The position numbers and the translations under genes were made by a program. Of a stretch of DNA of 64,000 nt, positions 13,961 through 22,242 are shown in pieces. Position 1 is the stretch's first letter. Each line of letters opens with the position of its first letter. The notes under the pieces are model-generated. The model saw only the letters and a list, made by a program, of their open reading frames with translations. It had not been told where the DNA came from and searched no databases. Source of the DNA: a virus. Lineage: Duplodnaviria > Heunggongvirae > Uroviricota > Caudoviricetes. The stretch lies in the IMG/VR virus record IMGVR_UViG_3300024272_001997. One strand, given 5' to 3'.

Positions 13961-16066
13961 ATGGCAACTCTTCCACCCGATGGGATTTATAGTGGTTTTT
14001 ATATTCGTTATTTTTTTGAAGGCGAAGAAATGACAGGCTACTATGGATCTAGTATGGGCATTTATAAAAGTGGAGATCCCGTCGAAGCGACAGTTACTTC
14101 AGATTGGATTATTAATGGGCCTAATGGCGAAGCTGCTTTATGGTATTGGGATTCAAATTATTAGAATGAAATTCAAATTGGTAGTTCATTAAGTTTTCAA
14201 GCTCATATTTATTTAGATGATGGAATCTCCTTTGGAATTATCATATATGGAAAGAGAATGGATATCAAATTAAAGATGGGTGCGAAGACTGATCTTCCAT
14301 CCAGTAAAAATAAAGGCACAGTATATTTTGCTAAAGATGGAGATAAAAACTTTGGTGAATTATATTATGATGATGAAAATGGCAATCGAGTAAAAATTGG
14401 CGGTAGCAATATTAGCAGCGCTAAATTTAAAATTTAGTATAATTCTAGCAATATTGATTTAGTTGATGGCCTTAGATTAGATTTAACTTTTGAAGATGGA
14501 ACTGTAATAGCTTCTAATTTTTTCCCTGAAGCAACAATATATAACCCTGGTTTAATGATGCCTGCCAAGAATAGTATTACAGAAATCCAATAGATGCCAT
14601 TAGGATTGAAATCTTTTTATCCAGGCATTATAATTGGTACAATGCCTGCATTAGAATTAAATAACGGTTATGCCATTGGAATTGGAGATGCTGCAGTTTT
14701 ATTTGGAGATGATAGTACAGAATATAATAAAGTAGGAATAATTCAAAGTCCAGAAACTTTAATATTAGCTACAGAGGATTAGACCGCAGTGTTTAGTGTA
14801 AGCAATTAGGATAATACTCCAGGAATAGTGGCTATGGCTGGTGATGCAAGTTTTACGCTTGCAGAAGGTTATTTTTGGACAGGTTCCTTAGGAGCTGAAT
14901 CTAATTATATTCCTACTGCTTATATTGAAGAACTTCATTCCACTTCAATCAATGCAGCCCAGTTTGAAGGAGCTTTTGCTGGAGATTTAGAAGGTACAGC
15001 TAGAGATGCAACTTCTTGGACCAATGCAATTCTTTTAAATGGCACTGAAGTTAAAGGCGGAGAAACTGAAGCAATTACTACTGCTAAATGGGGTGCTGAA
15101 CGCAATATCTCTATTTCTGGCACTGCCGGCACAACTGGAACTATTGTTGATGGTTCTAATGAAGATGGTTATACTCTAATCATTCCCGCAACTATGATTG
15201 GTTTCACTAGCATCACTTCTACTAATTTATTGGCAACTAACTTAGGAGCTGCTGGAGCCCCAGTTGAAGTTGCTCATTTTAAAGAAACTTATTTCCATAA
15301 TCCTAATAATAATAACTATAAGCATAAGCTAACAAGTAATGCTGGTTCTGCTGATTGTGAATTACAGCTACCTAATACTTCTGGCTTAATTGTTACTAAG
15401 GCTAGCACTACTGCGGCCGTTGGTGGTCTGAATGCACCAGTGTTTGTTGCTGCGAGCGGTGAAGTTACTGCTTGTTCTACTGTCTCTGTCGAGCATGGTG
15501 GTACTGGCGCTAACTCTTTAAGTGCTTATTCTTTATTATATGGCAATGGAACTAATGCAGTAGGACAGGTTACTCCTATGGCCGCAGGCCGTATTTTAGT
15601 ATCTGGCGGTACTACTTCTGCTCCTCTATATGCTAGCCCAAGTTTAAGTTTCAGCACAGGCGCTTCTAATCCAACTATTAGTTTTGTCATTAATGGTGCT
15701 ACTTATACTTCTACTAATGGCATTCAATCTGCTACTGGCGAAAATCCTGGTCTAGTTTCTACTACTACTCAGACTTTTGCAGGAGCAAAGACTTTTACTG
15801 GAGCTGTTAATTTTAGCGCTGGTATCACAAGTACAACAGGTACATTCTCTGGACAAATCAATGCTACAAACATCAAGTTGAGTGGTCAATTGAAGAGTCA
15901 TTCCGCAGGTACTTCTTATCTAACTTTGACTGATACTAAAGCAACTGTGACTTCTCCAACTGTTTATTTAAATGGTACAACTATCGTTCTAAATTCTAGT
16001 AATTATGGTCCTACTTTACCAACTACTAATTTAGAAGAAGGTCGAATTTTCTTCTTATTGACTTAA
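13961..16066 (+). CDS. Tail fibre/receptor-binding protein, 701 aa with 5 in-frame TAG (Gln)
   Basis: Track ORFs 13961, 14594 and 14828 share one frame and are separated only by TAG (14162, 14435, 14591, 14780, 14807); no TAA/TGA until 16064; AAAGGAGG RBS; LKMG..LP..GTVYF..D fibre motif. Confidence 0.75.
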
Positions 16067-16098: not shown

Positions 16099-18273
16099 AT
16101 GGCAACTTATGATTGCACTATAAATGGTGTTCGTGCAAGAGTTGCTGCCACTGGAGTCTACTGGTTTGGACCCTCTGGCGGCAACCTAGGCACTTCTACA
16201 ACTGACGATGAAGGTTGGGGCGTTAATGATGGAGAAGATTTCTTCGGTGGAAATGTCAACCCCATGGCTTGTGATCCAAGCGGTAATAGTAAATTTACAG
16301 TTGCTATCAAAGTAACTACTCCAAATTTATCAAATGTTACTATTAGTGCTTTAACAATTACAGTTCAAGGTTTTGACCATACTTACAAAGGTCTTACTTC
16401 TACTTATCCATTATATGCTAGTTTAAGAACTACTTCTACAAGTAGTAGTAGTGATACTTACAGCACTTTTAGAAATTACGCAATTGGAAGTGAGGCTAGT
16501 ACCAGTTCTCTTACTGGAAATTCTCTAAATCTTAATACTTGGTCTCCTACTTTCTACGGATCTTTTTCCCCAAATACTTCATATTATTTATTCTTATATA
16601 CTAAATCTACAAGCCAAATTTATGGTTTTTATCACAGTGGCGCAATTTGCACTGATGCTTATGTTACTTATACTCAAAATGCAGCATCTTATACTGTAAG
16701 TTTGAGTAAAGGTACTGGTATCAGTTCTGTAAGTGGCGGTGGCACTTATACAGAAGGCGATTTAGTAACCATTAGAGCTACTCCATCTTCTGGATATAGC
16801 TTTGTAAACTGGACAGGTTCAGAAACTTCAACCGCAAACCCTTATAGTTTTTATATTTATGGTAATAAGTCTTATACTGCTAACGCAAGTTCTGCGACTT
16901 ATTTAGTTCAATATAAAGCTGGTACTTATGGTTCTGGTACAGAGAGTTCTGTTTATAAAACTCATGGTACAAATTTAACCTTAAAAGGAGTGCAATTCAC
17001 TCGTTCTGGTTATACTCAAACTGATTGGGCTTCTGACGCCGCAGGTACGGTATGGGTAAATACCTTAAATGGAACTTATCAGACAGATGCTCCTGCAACT
17101 TTTTATCCATATTGGACACCCAATGTATATACATTAACCATTAATCCAAATGGTGGTACAATGTATAACGGTGACAATACTACTTCAAGTCCTTTTACCA
17201 CAGAATTCTCTTATGGTACTCTAACTTATATTGGTAATTTAGATAGTTACGAAGGATACTAGCCAGACAATAAGCCAACAAAACCTGGTTATACTTGTAC
17301 TGGATTTACTTTCTCTGGAGGCTCAGGTCAATAGAATACTAGTGGTGCTACTTTCTATTTTATGGGCGATAATCCAGCCGCCGCAATGGTTACTGCTTCT
17401 GATACTCGCTCTTGGGTTTTCAATGGTAATTATGCTGGCAATGTAACTGCGACTGCAGAATGGGTTGGAAATACTTATACTGTTGTTTATAATGCTAATG
17501 GTGGTACTGGTTCTATGGCTAATACATCTCATACTTATGGTGAAGGCTCTAGTTTAAGAACTAATAGTTTTACCCATTCTGGTTATACCTTTACCGGATG
17601 GAATACCAAAGAAGATGGAACAGGAACTACATATGCTAATAATGCTGTAGTAACTGATTTAACAACTACTGCCGGAGGAACTGTTACTTTATACGCTCAA
17701 TGGGGTGAAGCCACTTATACAGTTATTTTCAATCTAAATGGTGGTAGTATTCAAAGTGGTGATTTTAGTAATATGACTTGTGCTCGTAATACTAATTATA
17801 CCATTCCTACTGGAACCATTGCAGCCAATGGCTTAATCTTCTTAGGATGGTCTACATCATCTTCTGCTACGACTGCGACTTATGAAGCTGGAGATACTTT
17901 CAATAATATTGGAGCCGCAGGCGCAACAGTTATTTTATATGCAGTTTGGGATACAAAAGAGTTTACAATTAAATATCATGACAATAGCAATGGTAATACA
18001 TTAAGTGTTAGTTGTATTCCTGCAGCTACCACCAATACTTTTAGAACTCTTCCTTCTGGATGGACGAAGGATGGCTATGAAGCTATTGGTTGGAGTAGAT
18101 CTGCATCTGCCACTTCTCCTGACTATCGATTTGGTCAAGGATTTGTTGATGATTTAGGCGTAGCAGATGGAGCTACTTTAAATTTATATGTTGTTTGGAC
18201 CCTGTAGCAACCATGGACTCTGACTCAATTATATATGTATATTGATTCTAGAGATTCATTTGTTCAATTCTAA
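16099..18273 (+). CDS. Adhesin-like virion protein with InlB B-repeat (Listeria-Bacteroides repeat) domains, 724 aa with 3 in-frame TAG
   Basis: 16099 and 17362 ORFs are in one frame; TAG at 17260, 17332, 18205; TAA at 18271. Repeats of YTV.YNANGG..GYTFTGW..TLYAQW type. Confidence 0.8.
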
Positions 18274-18294: not shown

Positions 18295-18702
18295 ATGGAC
18301 TGGATGGTTATGTTATATCAAATTTTTGAACTTTGCGTTATTCCTCTCTTGGGTGTATTGACTATGTACTTAGTTCAATTCATTAAAATGAAGAGCCAAG
18401 AAATCGCAGATAAGACTGATAGTGAATTAGCAGATAAGTACATTCAAATGCTTGCTGATACTATCACTACTTGCGTTATCGCAACTAATCAGACTTATGT
18501 TGAATCTTTGAAGAAGCAAGGTAAGTTTGATGCAGAAGCTCAGAAGGAAGCTTTCAATTTGACTTATAATGCAGTTATGTCTGTATTAACTGATGAAGCT
18601 AAGCATTATTTGGCTTCCATTTATGGCGACTTGACCGCCTACATTACTAGTCGTATTGAGGCTGAGGTTAATGTAAGTAAGATTGTTCCTGTTACTGAGT
18701 AA
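18295..18702 (+). CDS. Putative holin (LL-H-like)
   Basis: 135 aa; single N-terminal TM (IPLLGVLTMYLV), charged helical remainder, ends I.SRIEAEV. Confidence 0.55.
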   Translation: MDWMVMLYQIFELCVIPLLGVLTMYLVQFIKMKSQEIADKTDSELADKYIQMLADTITTCVIATNQTYVESLKKQGKFDAEAQKEAFNLTYNAVMSVLTDEAKHYLASIYGDLTAYITSRIEAEVNVSKIVPVTE

Positions 18703-18710
18703 TTGCGGAG

Positions 18711-18755
18711 ATACCCGAAAAATACCTAAAAAGTATTTTTCGGGTATTTTTTTTT
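18711..18755 (+). terminator. Rho-independent terminator
   Basis: ATACCCGAAAAATAC-ctaaaaa-GTATTTTTCGGGTAT plus T-run. Confidence 0.85.
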
Positions 18756-18764
18756 GTCATTCGC

Positions 18765-18896
18765 AGGACCTCAAAAAGTTATGTCCCGGTATTCTTACGG
18801 TCCATTTTTGGTTATTTTTCATTCCAGTCGCGGTCCATTTTCGGTTAGGGTTCGGTCCTCGTTTGGACAAATTAGGGTAATTTTTCGGTCCTAATT
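18765..18896 (+). repeat. Degenerate tandem array of 12 x 11-bp units, consensus about CGGTYHWTTTT
   Basis: GG at unit positions 2-3 in 10 of 12 units; GGWCC at 18766, 18799, 18832, 18854, 18887 (all offsets are multiples of 11). Confidence 0.8.
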
Positions 18897-18956
18897 TTCA
18901 TAAAGCTATGAGGGGATTGGATAAAATATTTTTTGTATGGAGAGGAGACCTTACAT

Positions 18957-19391
18957 ATGTACTCAAACTATAATTATTATCCACAACAACCCTAGCAAGT
19001 CGCCCAATAGCAACCAGTGTACCAACCATTGTCTTACTTACGACAGGCGCCGCCGCAAGCAGGACTGAAAGGACGCTTGGTAGCATCATTGGAAGAGGCC
19101 CGTGCAACCTCTATTGACTTTGATGGTTCTGTATTCTACTTCCCAGATTTAGCGAACAGACGAATCTACACAAAACAAATAAATATGGATGGCACCGCAT
19201 CACTGTGTGTGTATGAATTAAGGGAAATGCCCGTTTAGAGAGAAGAGAGCGGTTCTGTTCCATCCGTTGAGAAATTTGTAACGAGAGAAGAGTTTGAGCA
19301 GGTCCTGGCGCAACTACAAATGCTCCAGAAGCCAACCGAGCCGGCCGTATCTGCCCCCGCAAAAGAAAAAGTAGAATTAATGTCATTCTAA
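18957..19391 (+). CDS. Accessory operon gene 1: Gln/Pro-rich N-terminus, 144 aa, 3 in-frame TAG
   Basis: GAGAGGAG RBS; reads QQP*QVAQ*QP (TAG 18993, 19008) and TAG 19236; FVTREEFE motif; TAA at 19389. Confidence 0.8.
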
Positions 19392-19401
19392 GGAGGTATG
19401 A

Positions 19402-19656
19402 ATGATGTATCCAGTAAACCCAAATAAATTAATCCAAATGATTAAATCCGGGCAAAATCCTCAGCAATTGATGTTATCAATTTTGAAAGGACAAGCCTAT
19501 GATAATCCCCTCGGAAAAAATCTCCTAAATTTAGCTCAATCTGGTCGCACTGTCGAATTAGAGAAAGTAATTCGCAACCTTTACGCCCAGTAGGGCGGTC
19601 AAAATTTCGACCAGGAGTTCGAAGCCTTTAAACGTGCATTAGGCTACAACACTTAA
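19402..19656 (+). CDS. Accessory operon gene 2: small helical Gln/Met-rich protein, 84 aa, 1 in-frame TAG
   Basis: GGAGG RBS; TAG at 19591 read through to TAA at 19654. Confidence 0.75.
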
Positions 19657-19677
19657 AATTTAAGGAGGAAAAAAATT

Positions 19678-20394
19678 ATGTTCAATGGAAAAGGTTATAA
19701 TTTATCTGATATCGCTGCTGTAACCCGTGGAAGTGGTACTGGTTTCGGTGGAGATGGCGACGGCGCATGGTGGCTGTTACTGTTATTCCTGTTTGCGGGA
19801 TGGGGTAATGGTGGCTATGGCGGCGGCCTTGGCGCAGGTAACGCTCGCGACGCTGTTTCTTATGGCTTTGATATCAACAATCTAGAAAATGGAATCCGTG
19901 GACTAGAGCATGGTCTATGCGATGGTTTCTATGACATGAACACTTCTTTGCTAACTGGTTTTGGTAATGTTACTATGGGTAATATGCAGAACACTAACGC
20001 CATTATGGGCCGTTTGTGTGATATGTCCGCAGAGCAAGCTGCTTGTTGCTGCGAAACTCAGCGCTTGATTGAGAGAGGTTTGTGCGAAGTCAACTATAAT
20101 ATCTTGACTCAATCTAACGCAACTAATACTAATATTGCCAATGCCGCGAGAGATATTATTGAAAACAATAATAATGGTGTTCGCTCTATCTTAGACTTCT
20201 TGACTCAGGATAAGATTGCTACTTTGCAGGCTGAAAATCAGGCTTTGCGCTTGACCGCTTCTCAGCAAGCTCAGAACGCTTTCTTGATCGACCAGTTAGG
20301 AACTAAGGCTCCTATTCCTGCATACATGGTAGCTAATCCATATGCTAGCTATGGTTGTGGTATGAACTACTATGCTGGATGTGGCTGCAACTAA
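19678..20394 (+). CDS. Accessory operon gene 3: Gly-rich/hydrophobic N-terminus, CCC motif, coiled coil, Cys/Gly/Tyr tail
   Basis: 238 aa; GGDGDGAWWLLLLFLFAGWG, ACCCETQR, C-terminal YGCGMNYYAGCGCN. Confidence 0.85.
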   Translation: MFNGKGYNLSDIAAVTRGSGTGFGGDGDGAWWLLLLFLFAGWGNGGYGGGLGAGNARDAVSYGFDINNLENGIRGLEHGLCDGFYDMNTSLLTGFGNVTMGNMQNTNAIMGRLCDMSAEQAACCCETQRLIERGLCEVNYNILTQSNATNTNIANAARDIIENNNNGVRSILDFLTQDKIATLQAENQALRLTASQQAQNAFLIDQLGTKAPIPAYMVANPYASYGCGMNYYAGCGCN

Positions 20395-20413
20395 TATCTA
20401 AGGAGGAAAGTAT

Positions 20414-20836
20414 ATGGAAATTATTGCTAATGCTGTTCAAACAGTTCCCGCAAATCAGAATGTTTATTTCACTGATTCTGTTACTTCTGGAAATTATTCT
20501 ATCGAGCATCGTGATGGTAGTGGATTGGTGACTCTTCGCGGAGTCACCAATACTCAGTGCCGCGCCCGTTTTAGAGTACATTTCGGCGCAAATGTCGCGA
20601 TTGCAGAAGGTGGCACCGTCGGACCAATTTCCTTAGCTATCTCTTTGGATGGTGAAGCGGTTCCAGCTACAATTATGACTGTCACCCCTGCCGCAGTTGG
20701 AGATTTCTTCAATGTGAGCGCATCTATCTTTATTGATATTCCAAAAGGATGCTGCTCTCATGTGGCCGTGAAGAATATTTCTACTCAGCCAATTGATGTA
20801 CAAAATGCAAATCTAATTGCTGAACGTTCTGCGTAA
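20414..20836 (+). CDS. Accessory operon gene 4: all-beta protein resembling BclA C-terminal/C1q-TNF-like domain
   Basis: 140 aa; QTVPANQNVYF, FRVHF, LAISLDGEAV, VAVKN..NANLIAER pattern; GCC motif. Confidence 0.6.
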   Translation: MEIIANAVQTVPANQNVYFTDSVTSGNYSIEHRDGSGLVTLRGVTNTQCRARFRVHFGANVAIAEGGTVGPISLAISLDGEAVPATIMTVTPAAVGDFFNVSASIFIDIPKGCCSHVAVKNISTQPIDVQNANLIAERSA

Positions 20837-20847
20837 GGAGGGATAGT

Positions 20848-21429
20848 ATGGACCACGAAAGATTAAAACACATGAAAGAAACTTTAATGTGTGCTGTTGA
20901 AGTACAATTATGTGATTTGGGTGAAGTAGATACTAAAGAGCTTGGAGAAGCTATTGATATGATTAAAGATTTAGAAGAGGCAATCTACTATTGCACCGTT
21001 ACAGAAGCTATGAACAACTCTTCACACGAAATGGAGTTTGAAATGAAAAAAGGCGGCCATCACCAGTAGGAAAATGGTGACAGCCGCATGTATTATGACA
21101 GAAATCGTAGAAGTGATGGTACATTCTATGCTGACAATGATAATTCTTCTTCTTCTGGAATGAATAGTTCTAATGGAAGAAATTATTACGATGACCCAGG
21201 TATGTGGCGCGATGAGCGCGAAGGCCGCAGTTATAATAGTCGTAGAATGTATATGGAAGCCAAGGATATGAAACGAGATAAAGCTACTCAATTGCGTGAG
21301 TTAGAAAAGTATATGCAAGAGCTATCTCTGGATATTACCGAAATGATTGCGGATGCTTCTCCAGAAGAAAAAGCATATCTTGAAAAGAAGATAACCGCAT
21401 TGGCTTCTAAAATTGGTCAAATGAAATGA
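20848..21429 (+). CDS. Accessory operon gene 5: helical protein with low-complexity middle, 193 aa, 1 in-frame TAG
   Basis: 20848 and 21088 ORFs share a frame, joined by TAG at 21067. Confidence 0.8.
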
Positions 21430-21737
21430 TTATAAATGGCGTGCGCTGGCGGGTCCGGTTGGTCTCGCCAGCCCATCCAATGCTACTTACGCCTTGGAGA
21501 ACTCACGCTCTTGGAGTTTGTGATAAAGTCACATAGACTATATGTATAGACAAGACTCTTTCCCCTCAACAACTAAAAGAAGTCTTATGTCATGAATTAG
21601 TTCATGCTTTTATGTTTAGCTATGCTGTGGATTTATCATATGATGAAGAGGAAATGGTAGCAGAGCTTATGACTGAATATGGAGAAGATATATTAGAACG
21701 GACAAACGCGATTTATAATGGTATAAAAATGAAATAA
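21426..21737 (+). CDS. Accessory operon gene 6: small HExxH zinc metallopeptidase-like protein (ImmA/IrrE-like), 103 aa, 1 in-frame TAG
   Basis: Missed by the track; ATG overlaps the TGA of gene 5; TAG at 21534; LCHELVH motif and downstream EE. Confidence 0.75.
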
Positions 21738-21780
21738 GGGTCGATTATGAATAATCATAATCGACCCCTTATTTTTTTTT
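21733..21780. terminator. Bidirectional terminator at the convergence of the two arms
   Basis: AATAAGGGTCGATTATGA-ataa-TCATAATCGACCCCTTATT plus T-run. Confidence 0.8.
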
Positions 21781-21783
21781 GGT

Positions 21784-22242
21784 TTAATCAACAACGTCGT
21801 CATTATCAACTTTTAAGTCTAAAGCCATAGCCTTATCATAATAGATTTTAGCTTGACCGTTGCCACCCAAACCAGTATATAATTTATAGAACTCGGTTAA
21901 CTGTTCCATCTGTGCAGGAGTAATATATCCCTGAGCTAAGAATCCTTTGCATAATTGTACTAAGCGGAAACGATAAGAAGCAATAATCAGATTCATATGA
22001 GTCTTCTCGATGTTCTCAGTTTCTCTGATATATTTTCTTAGTTCCTCTAATTCCTGATATACTGGTTCTAAATGGATCTCAATGGTGTCCTCGACATGTT
22101 GTCTCTCTTGGGCGGCGGCTAATTCTCTAGCGTTTCTTAATTCACGATTCAATTCACGAGTTTTGAACTTAGCATAACCAATTACACCGGCACTGATAAG
22201 AGCAAACAAAATCTCCATACCCCACTCAGCTAATAATTCCAT
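21784..22242 (-). CDS. Membrane protein with C-terminal Y..Y..LGGNG motif (lysis-module-associated type)
   Basis: 152 aa; N-terminal TM, coiled coil, FYKLYTGLGGNG. Confidence 0.55.
   Translation of the reverse strand: MELLAEWGMEILFALISAGVIGYAKFKTRELNRELRNARELAAAQERQHVEDTIEIHLEPVYQELEELRKYIRETENIEKTHMNLIIASYRFRLVQLCKGFLAQGYITPAQMEQLTEFYKLYTGLGGNGQAKIYYDKAMALDLKVDNDDVVD

Follow-up and report, generated by a model that had tools for sequence, protein, structure and literature searches.

The closest described relatives of the system reported here are proteins of the spore surface. The C-terminal domain of BclA (PF18573), which also forms the F-BclA tip of F-ENA appendages (PDB 1wck, 9h38), is a jelly-roll head associated with an exosporium leader, a collagen-like GXY stalk and a glycosylated nap. 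The anchor trimer ExsFA/BxpB (ExsF; 8d02, 7r1m, 9h3d) has the same fold in a stand-alone protein of ~140-170 amino acids (aa). ExsF binds the Pro-rich leader peptides of its partners at subunit clefts, and the leader segment of BclA is cleaved off (PMC12357932). Among phages, TNF-like heads of this fold are the distal knobs of trimeric appendages, as in the central spike knob of phi812 (9eul), the fibre domains of cyanophages A-1(L) and A4 (8ke9, 9k09) and BppU. Here we describe a cassette of six genes, g1 to g6, in a 64,000-nucleotide stretch of DNA (hereafter, the window) from a virus of the Caudoviricetes (IMG/VR record IMGVR_UViG_3300024272_001997). One of its products, g4, has the fold of these heads and is encoded beside g3, a predicted coiled-coil protein, in a gene order that recurs across many phages of gut bacteria.

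The g4 protein (phrog_20016, function 'unknown') carries a conserved GCC loop and was folded with AlphaFold2 (AF2) from a 79-sequence alignment of 50%-identity representatives. The model, with a predicted local distance difference test score (pLDDT) of 98.1 and a predicted template modelling score (pTM) of 0.90, is an all-beta, ten-strand jelly-roll of the C1q/TNF type. Foldseek matched it to F-BclA, BxpB, ExsFA and BclA at template modelling (TM) scores of 0.70-0.75. By VIA-align, the Z score was highest against the C-terminal domain of F-BclA (9h38; 17.6), followed by that of BclA (1wck; 16.2, 18% identity), BxpB/ExsF (15.6-15.8), ExsFA (14.7-14.9), C1q and TNF ligands (13-15) and phage spike or fibre knobs (12.6-12.8). 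The jelly-roll of the BclA domain extends over the whole length of g4, with 121-122 residues aligned at a root-mean-square deviation of 1.9 Å and 12-18% identity. Among the matches of g4 in AlphaFold-DB and BFVD were BclA-C proteins, BppU and tail fibres, together with small proteins of gut phages, some of which bear the label 'BclA protein'. A preliminary description of this DNA, made from the sequence alone, had predicted a C1q/BclA fold for g4 and staked its interpretation on it beforehand; the model and its nearest structures bear that prediction out.

Unlike BclA, g4 stands alone, without a collagen-like GXY stalk or an exosporium leader; it is encoded by a phage, outside the context of a glycosylated nap, and its hosts are often not spore formers. 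It had no Pfam match at E <=1, the BclA_C sequence model (PF18573) included. Its relatives, 672 clusters at 50% identity, range from 78 to 196 aa, and a search for longer or fused forms found none, which is weak evidence. Since g4 is always a stand-alone protein, it is closer to ExsF/BxpB than to BclA, even though its identity to ExsF is only ~11% and hosts of the cassette lack an exosporium. The phage TNF-like heads, for their part, are fused to shafts inside tail modules, whereas g4 has its own gene, in a cassette with terminators of its own.

The predicted layout of the g3 protein (phrog_16490, family function 'unknown') agrees with the anchor plus stalk that had been proposed for it: its N-terminus is Gly-rich and hydrophobic, its tail is rich in Cys, and a long helix is predicted to connect the two. 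Along the family alignment, a conserved N-terminal peptide is followed by Gly-rich tracts around a hydrophobic run of 12-15 residues, then by a CCC that is nearly invariant, a heptad-like region that is likewise conserved, the motif PxPAYxVxNP and finally a CC...GCGC tail. The hydrophobic run of g3, WWLLLLFLFAGW, and its Gly-rich flanks are conserved across the family. An AF2 monomer consisted of a single long helix from residue 66 to 208, at a pLDDT of 53, which is low and was used for the extent of the helix only. Relatives of g3 fill at least 7856 clusters, and an Atlas search with g3 returned viral clusters only, none of them named. A modelled complex of three g4 chains with three copies of g3 residues 150-238 scored 0.02, a value that counts neither for nor against binding.

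Taken together, the parts are most economically read as a stalk with a C1q-like head, locked by cysteines and processed by a protease. Specifically, the cassette would be an autonomous accessory of gut phages that builds a small protein assembly in the cytoplasm of the infected cell. In this assembly, g3 would be an elongated, probably trimeric coiled-coil stalk with its Gly-rich hydrophobic end on one side and its Pro/Cys-rich tail on the other. A probably trimeric g4, as a stand-alone BclA/ExsF-like knob, would cap or anchor the stalk. The Cys clusters (CCC and CC..GCGC in g3, GCC in g4) could then lock the complex through disulfides or metal, g1, g2 and g5 would act as cassette-specific helpers or further subunits, and g6 would perform a maturation cleavage, a task that may fall to an unrelated Cys/His protein in a second type of cassette described below. 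By analogy, ExsF, its leader peptides and their cleavage offer the nearest working model for g4, the Pro/Cys-rich tail or N-terminal peptide of g3, and the protease, with the difference that no exosporium-leader motif was detected in g3. The connectors of S-/L-ENA appendages likewise have short CC motifs at the ends of self-assembling subunits made in the cytoplasm; unlike them, the cassette contains no DUF3992/DUF4183 fold, and for g3 and g4 we only infer cross-linking.

The pairing of g3 and g4 is widespread. At least 16 phage records, that of Butyrivibrio phage Ceridwen among them, have the two genes side by side, as do 25 loci from bacterial genomes or metagenome-assembled genomes (MAGs). 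After adding 80 further viral contigs and building family profiles, we scored 111 loci, in which the core order g1-g2/C-g3-g4-g5/D holds. Two types of cassette predominate. Type II, found in the window, has the order g1-g2-g3-g4-g5-g6, with the HExxH protein g6 at the 3' end. Type I has the order A-g1-C-g3-g4-D, to which a second D or an E is sometimes added, with the small Cys/His protein A at the 5' end. Because profile comparison with hhalign joins g2 to the type I small protein C (phrog_22984; probability 91%) and the N-terminal 60 residues of g5 to type I protein D (phrog_28802; probability 95%), the two types have a five-gene core in common.

In protein A (phrog_3754, ~125-140 aa), the alignment columns with N, DC, H and D are invariant (locus L010, 4094-4483, and 17 other loci), a pattern that suggests a papain-like cysteine peptidase in place of g6. 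Its profile matched nothing among PDB sequences or in Pfam. Of 72 complete cassettes, defined by at least 1.5 kb of flank on both sides, 48 contain A only, 22 g6 only, one both and one neither, so that a predicted peptidase of either kind almost always accompanies the core (71 of 72). The preliminary description had made its interpretation depend on co-conservation of the genes as a unit; indeed, the five-gene core recurs with one of two unrelated predicted peptidases.

The remaining products are less distinctive. The g1 protein (phrog_21718) combines a Q/P/Y-rich N-terminus with a conserved domain; its family is present in 70 of the 74 loci that hold g3 with full flanks, and also in C. perfringens phages such as CPD1. 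The g2 protein is small and helical with an NPQQ-type motif, and g5 has helical ends around a low-complexity middle rich in R/Y/G/S/D/N. Pfam scans of fused or long relatives of g1 and g5 found nothing. The g6 protein carries an HExxH motif (HELVH) and is the only cassette protein with a Pfam match, a marginal one to Peptidase_M78 over just 36 residues (23.4 bits; cut-off 22). Matches to DUF6782 and SprT-like were below the Pfam cut-offs, and g6 falls into phrog_1233 (4e-14; function 'unknown'). NCBIfam models gave nothing useful on the six proteins and no exosporium-leader match.

These features bear on another explanation, in which the cassette is an intracellular effector set for host takeover, counter-defence or regulation. 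Here g6 would be a regulatory protease of the ImmA/IrrE type, and the low-complexity g1 and g5 would have host factors as their targets or assemble into condensates. Peptidase_M78, the IrrE/ImmA family, is indeed the sole Pfam family above cut-off for g6, the low-complexity regions of g1 and g5 are long, the cassette is optional and mobile with terminators of its own, and in some phages it lies among early-type genes. Beyond the HExxH that g6 has in common with the minimal domains of M78 (ImmA/IrrE) and SprT-like peptidases, the likeness ends: g6 has only 103 aa, is always at the 3' end of the cassette and lacks a repressor partner, as no helix-turn-helix family was found among g1-g5 or the flanking open reading frames (ORFs). 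PADLOC defence models had no match at E <=0.1 to the six proteins or protein A. A highly conserved C1q/TNF-fold protein beside a Cys-rich coiled coil is typical of extracellular or structural assemblies, and the strict gene order with translational coupling suggests subunits made in fixed proportions. We therefore regard an effector set as unlikely.

The position of the cassette varies between genomes. A type II cassette lies 3' of a holin gene at the end of the late block in the window and in 17 other loci, and in about ten loci, as well as in Ceridwen and Dulem virus 33, the cassette follows an endolysin gene or adjoins an integrase gene. In Ceridwen, Dulem virus 33 and locus L014 it comes after endolysins, and in the crAss-like phage cr116_1 it is near lysis genes. 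About 32 type I cassettes are inserted between the genes for portal and minor head protein on one side and those for scaffold and major head protein on the other. In one such insertion (locus L071, 2540-11427) and ~30 similar viral contigs, the minor head protein is SPP1-gp7-like. In the virus Caudoviricetes sp. vir215 (L031), assigned to Methanomassiliicoccales, a g3-family gene (phrog_16490) is 3' of genes for a tail protein and a reverse transcriptase and 5' of an integrase gene; the reverse transcriptase could possibly belong to a diversity-generating element. Such varied positions point to a mobile, self-contained module rather than a fixed part of one morphogenetic pathway.

The copies near lysis genes raise the possibility of a device of the cell envelope. 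In that case g3 would be anchored in the cytoplasmic membrane by its N-terminal hydrophobic segment with the coiled coil outside, and g4 and the other products would reach it after the holin fires, as a spanin-like aid to lysis or egress or as a block to superinfection. The i-spanin Rz of phage lambda combines a hydrophobic segment at its N-terminus with a long coiled coil and conserved Cys, and its neighbours are lysis genes. All of these have counterparts in g3, and the conserved hydrophobic run with its Gly-rich flanks and the adjoining lysis genes speak for such a device. The maximum of a 19-residue Kyte-Doolittle window in g3 is, however, 1.14, compared with a usual transmembrane threshold of 1.6, and no positive-inside charge bias flanks the run, so a membrane anchor is possible rather than established. 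Unlike Rz/Rz1, in which a type II membrane anchor is paired with an outer-membrane lipoprotein in diderm hosts, g3 has no lipoprotein partner, and its carriers include monoderm Clostridia and archaea-assigned viruses. By eye, no signal peptide was evident in any of the six proteins, nor a lipobox in the five other than g3. Monoderm, diderm and archaeal carriers would need different solutions for egress, many copies are in head-gene blocks far from lysis genes, and accessory genes in general tend to land at the ends of late operons. On balance, an envelope device appears rather unlikely, if the most substantial of the alternatives.

The hosts are as varied as the genome positions. Carriers of the cassette were found in Acutalibacteraceae, Oscillospiraceae, Ruminococcus, Lachnospiraceae, Blautia and uncultured Bacilli. 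They also include five genomes of Selenomonadaceae, one being that of the isolate Selenomonas sp. AE3005 (Selenomonas prophages), and Ceridwen, isolated from lytic plaques on Butyrivibrio fibrisolvens. The g3 family extends further, to many crAss-like phages, the Bacteroides uniformis phage C3_41T2LP and two viruses assigned to Methanomassiliicoccales. Relatives of g3 across phages of Firmicutes and Bacteroidota and archaea-assigned viruses argue for a role independent of the host wall. The g3-like proteins of cr116_1 (L029, 3278-4174) and C3_41T2LP (L030, 3557-4474) have an N-terminal KGxDPNxM extension that is g2/C-like by eye, and the two genes may thus have fused in crAss-like and Bacteroides phages. 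Their module also holds a Cys-bearing beta protein, a small R/D/Y-rich protein and one with HExxH; when compared by hhalign, the g4 family gave no significant match to the beta protein 3' of g3 in cr116_1 (probability 0.6%).

This host range is central to the role first suggested for the cassette, which was remodelling of the host spore coat or exosporium, now in the form of a phage-borne BclA/ExsF-like nap. The nearest solved structures to g4 are exosporium proteins, and SpoIVA, a hallmark of endospore formers, is encoded by seven of 15 carrier genomes, including the MAG with the closest cassette (L005). The other eight carrier genomes, among them all five of Selenomonadaceae, had no SpoIVA, in a census subject to MAG incompleteness. 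The cassette is carried by a phage of B. fibrisolvens, a Selenomonas isolate and Selenomonadaceae MAGs, and the g3 family by crAss-like, Bacteroides and methanogen-assigned viruses. The promoter of a sporulation sigma factor, suggested as a check, was not seen at 18700-18960 with simple patterns based on B. subtilis consensus sequences, and there is neither a collagen stalk nor a match to an exosporium-leader model. A spore-coat or exosporium function is thus not supported as a general explanation, and we hold it to be very improbable. Of the original interpretation, the C1q fold of g4, the stalk layout of g3 and the co-conservation of the genes stand, and the link to spores falls.

For the destination of the stalk and knob we favour the phage particle, tentatively and with somewhat less than even confidence. 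The complete proposal is of a late-made, protease-matured, cysteine-locked assembly of g3 and g4, attached to the particle as an optional appendage or carried as an ejected component, in a role that would not depend on the type of host envelope. We favour the particle because many copies are in head-gene blocks or at the ends of late operons, the fold is used in phage fibre tips, secretion signals are absent and the envelope type of the host would be irrelevant. The C1q/TNF fold serves as the head of phage fibres or spikes in the phi812 spike knob, cyanophage fibre domains, BppU and tail-fibre entries. Several points weigh on the other side. The related cassette in C3_41T2LP and CPD1 follows recombination or DNA-binding genes, which is a poor fit to a purely structural role, and the cassette is optional and has terminators of its own. 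A hydrophobic Gly-rich end such as that of g3 is unusual for a fibre. Contact between g3 and g4 is inferred, with the monomer model of g3 as poor as its pLDDT indicates, and the candidate peptidase role of protein A is drawn from its invariant columns. Furthermore, A and g6 are divided along two lineages, and the loci therefore cannot be counted as independent events.

A related proposal differs in the target. The BclA/C1q-like knob on its cysteine-locked stalk, on particles or released at lysis, would be an adaptation to the gut that binds components of the animal gut (mucus glycans, C1q/TNF-type receptors) and not the bacterial host. Binding of this kind would account for the presence of one system in phages of both Firmicutes and Bacteroidota and in gut-archaea-assigned viruses; we consider it improbable.

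All genes were called with TAG read as Gln, and the usage of this codon bears on when the cassette would be made. In-frame TAG codons number three in g1 and one each in g2, g5 and g6, with none in g3 and g4, exactly the distribution that had been remarked on earlier. The cassette is enriched in TAG (six in 910 codons, compared with 0.9 per 1000 elsewhere in the window; P ~2e-4). The absence from g3 and g4 is unremarkable against the background of the window (P = 0.71) and just slightly unexpected by comparison with the remaining four genes of the cassette (P = 0.014), so that TAG as a mark of structural versus accessory genes is statistically weak. In total, the 63 ORFs of the window have 23 in-frame TAG codons (~1.1 per 1000 codons), concentrated in the cassette and in two large late genes, at 13961-16066 (five) and 16099-18273 (three). 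The second of these, on the plus strand, encodes a 724-aa late protein with repeated 'YTV.YNANGG.G...GYTF.GW' units that by eye resemble the Listeria-Bacteroides type. ARAGORN found no tRNA genes in the window, hence any suppressor tRNA would be elsewhere in the genome. TAG suppression has been reported to act late in infection. Given that translation requires TAG to be read as Gln, the cassette proteins of this phage are expected when suppression has set in.

Coordinates of the cassette and its flanking features are collected in the table. As had been described, six tightly packed, co-oriented genes lie between two strong terminators, and AGGAGG-type ribosome-binding sites precede most of them.

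Table. Features of the cassette and its surroundings, in positions of the window
Feature	Position	Strand	Description
Holin gene, upstream	18295-18702	+	135 aa; N-terminal hydrophobic helix; phrog_13712 match, E 9e-35
Intrinsic terminator	18707-18751	+	19-pair hairpin and T run; ends the upstream late block
CGGTCC-containing repeat array	18798-18892	+	Four copies, between the holin terminator and g1
g1	18957-19391	+	144 aa; alternative TTG start at 18933
g2	19402-19656	+	84 aa
g3	19678-20394	+	238 aa
g4	20414-20836	+	140 aa
g5	20848-21429	+	193 aa
g6	21426-21737	+	103 aa
Bidirectional terminator	21738-21767	both	13-15 pairs and T run; closes the operon and the convergent minus-strand block
Convergent ORF	21784-22242	-	152 aa; hydrophobic N-terminus; phrog_4105 and phrog_4257 matches (function unknown)

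From g1 to g6 the intergenic gaps are 10, 21, 19, 11 and -4 nucleotides. GGAG/AAGGAGG sites stand 5' of g1-g5; g6 has no ribosome-binding site of its own and is translationally coupled to g5 through an ATGA overlap with its end. The sequence motifs reported earlier were all found again: the Q/P/Y-rich N-terminus of g1, the GAWWLLLLFLF, CCC and ...GCGCN end of g3, the GCC of g4 and the HELVH of g6. The cassette has a slightly higher GC fraction (0.417) than its flanks (0.37 and 0.395). The holin family phrog_13712 is also directly 5' of the cassette in the 17 other type II loci mentioned above, and the convergent minus-strand ORF and the cassette have the bidirectional terminator in common.

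Upstream of g1, GGTCC starts at 18799, 18832, 18854 and 18887 (spacings of 33, 22 and 33 bp), the sole cluster of at least three GGTCC per 150 bp in the whole window. Three copies are found 5' of the cassette in the closest relative, L005, and the array is missing upstream of most other cassettes, which do not in general possess it. No sigma-70-like site was found on the plus strand of the array region, and in this phage the repeats may have a regulatory role for the operon. In four gut metatranscriptome runs from a single study, assembled contigs span 18876-22045, with next to no coverage of the adjoining 9 kb on each side. These runs had been selected with this stretch, the contigs come mostly from relatives at 88-95% identity, and DNA carry-over is possible; they indicate presence in RNA libraries only, and nothing about level or timing.

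We found no published description of this cassette in a literature search, and no known function attaches to it, as the preliminary description had required. The PHROG families of g1, g3, g4 and g6 are all of function 'unknown', none of its families has an assigned function, and g3 and g4 each have at least ~7,900 relatives at 90% clustering in public data. The cassette has thus escaped description despite its presence in thousands of gut phages. Five core genes and a predicted peptidase move together between unrelated phages, and the central protein crosses host phyla and possibly domains, a spread that points to a common need of gut viruses without a name in current phage biology. Cultured carriers of the cassette or its relative exist in Butyrivibrio phage Ceridwen (proteins QHJ73765-QHJ73771) and Bacteroides phage C3_41T2LP (WLZ21182 and the proteins encoded 3' of it), which makes these ideas directly testable. 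The outcome would show whether proteins like BclA and ExsF are generally used to build surface assemblies, and not on spores alone.

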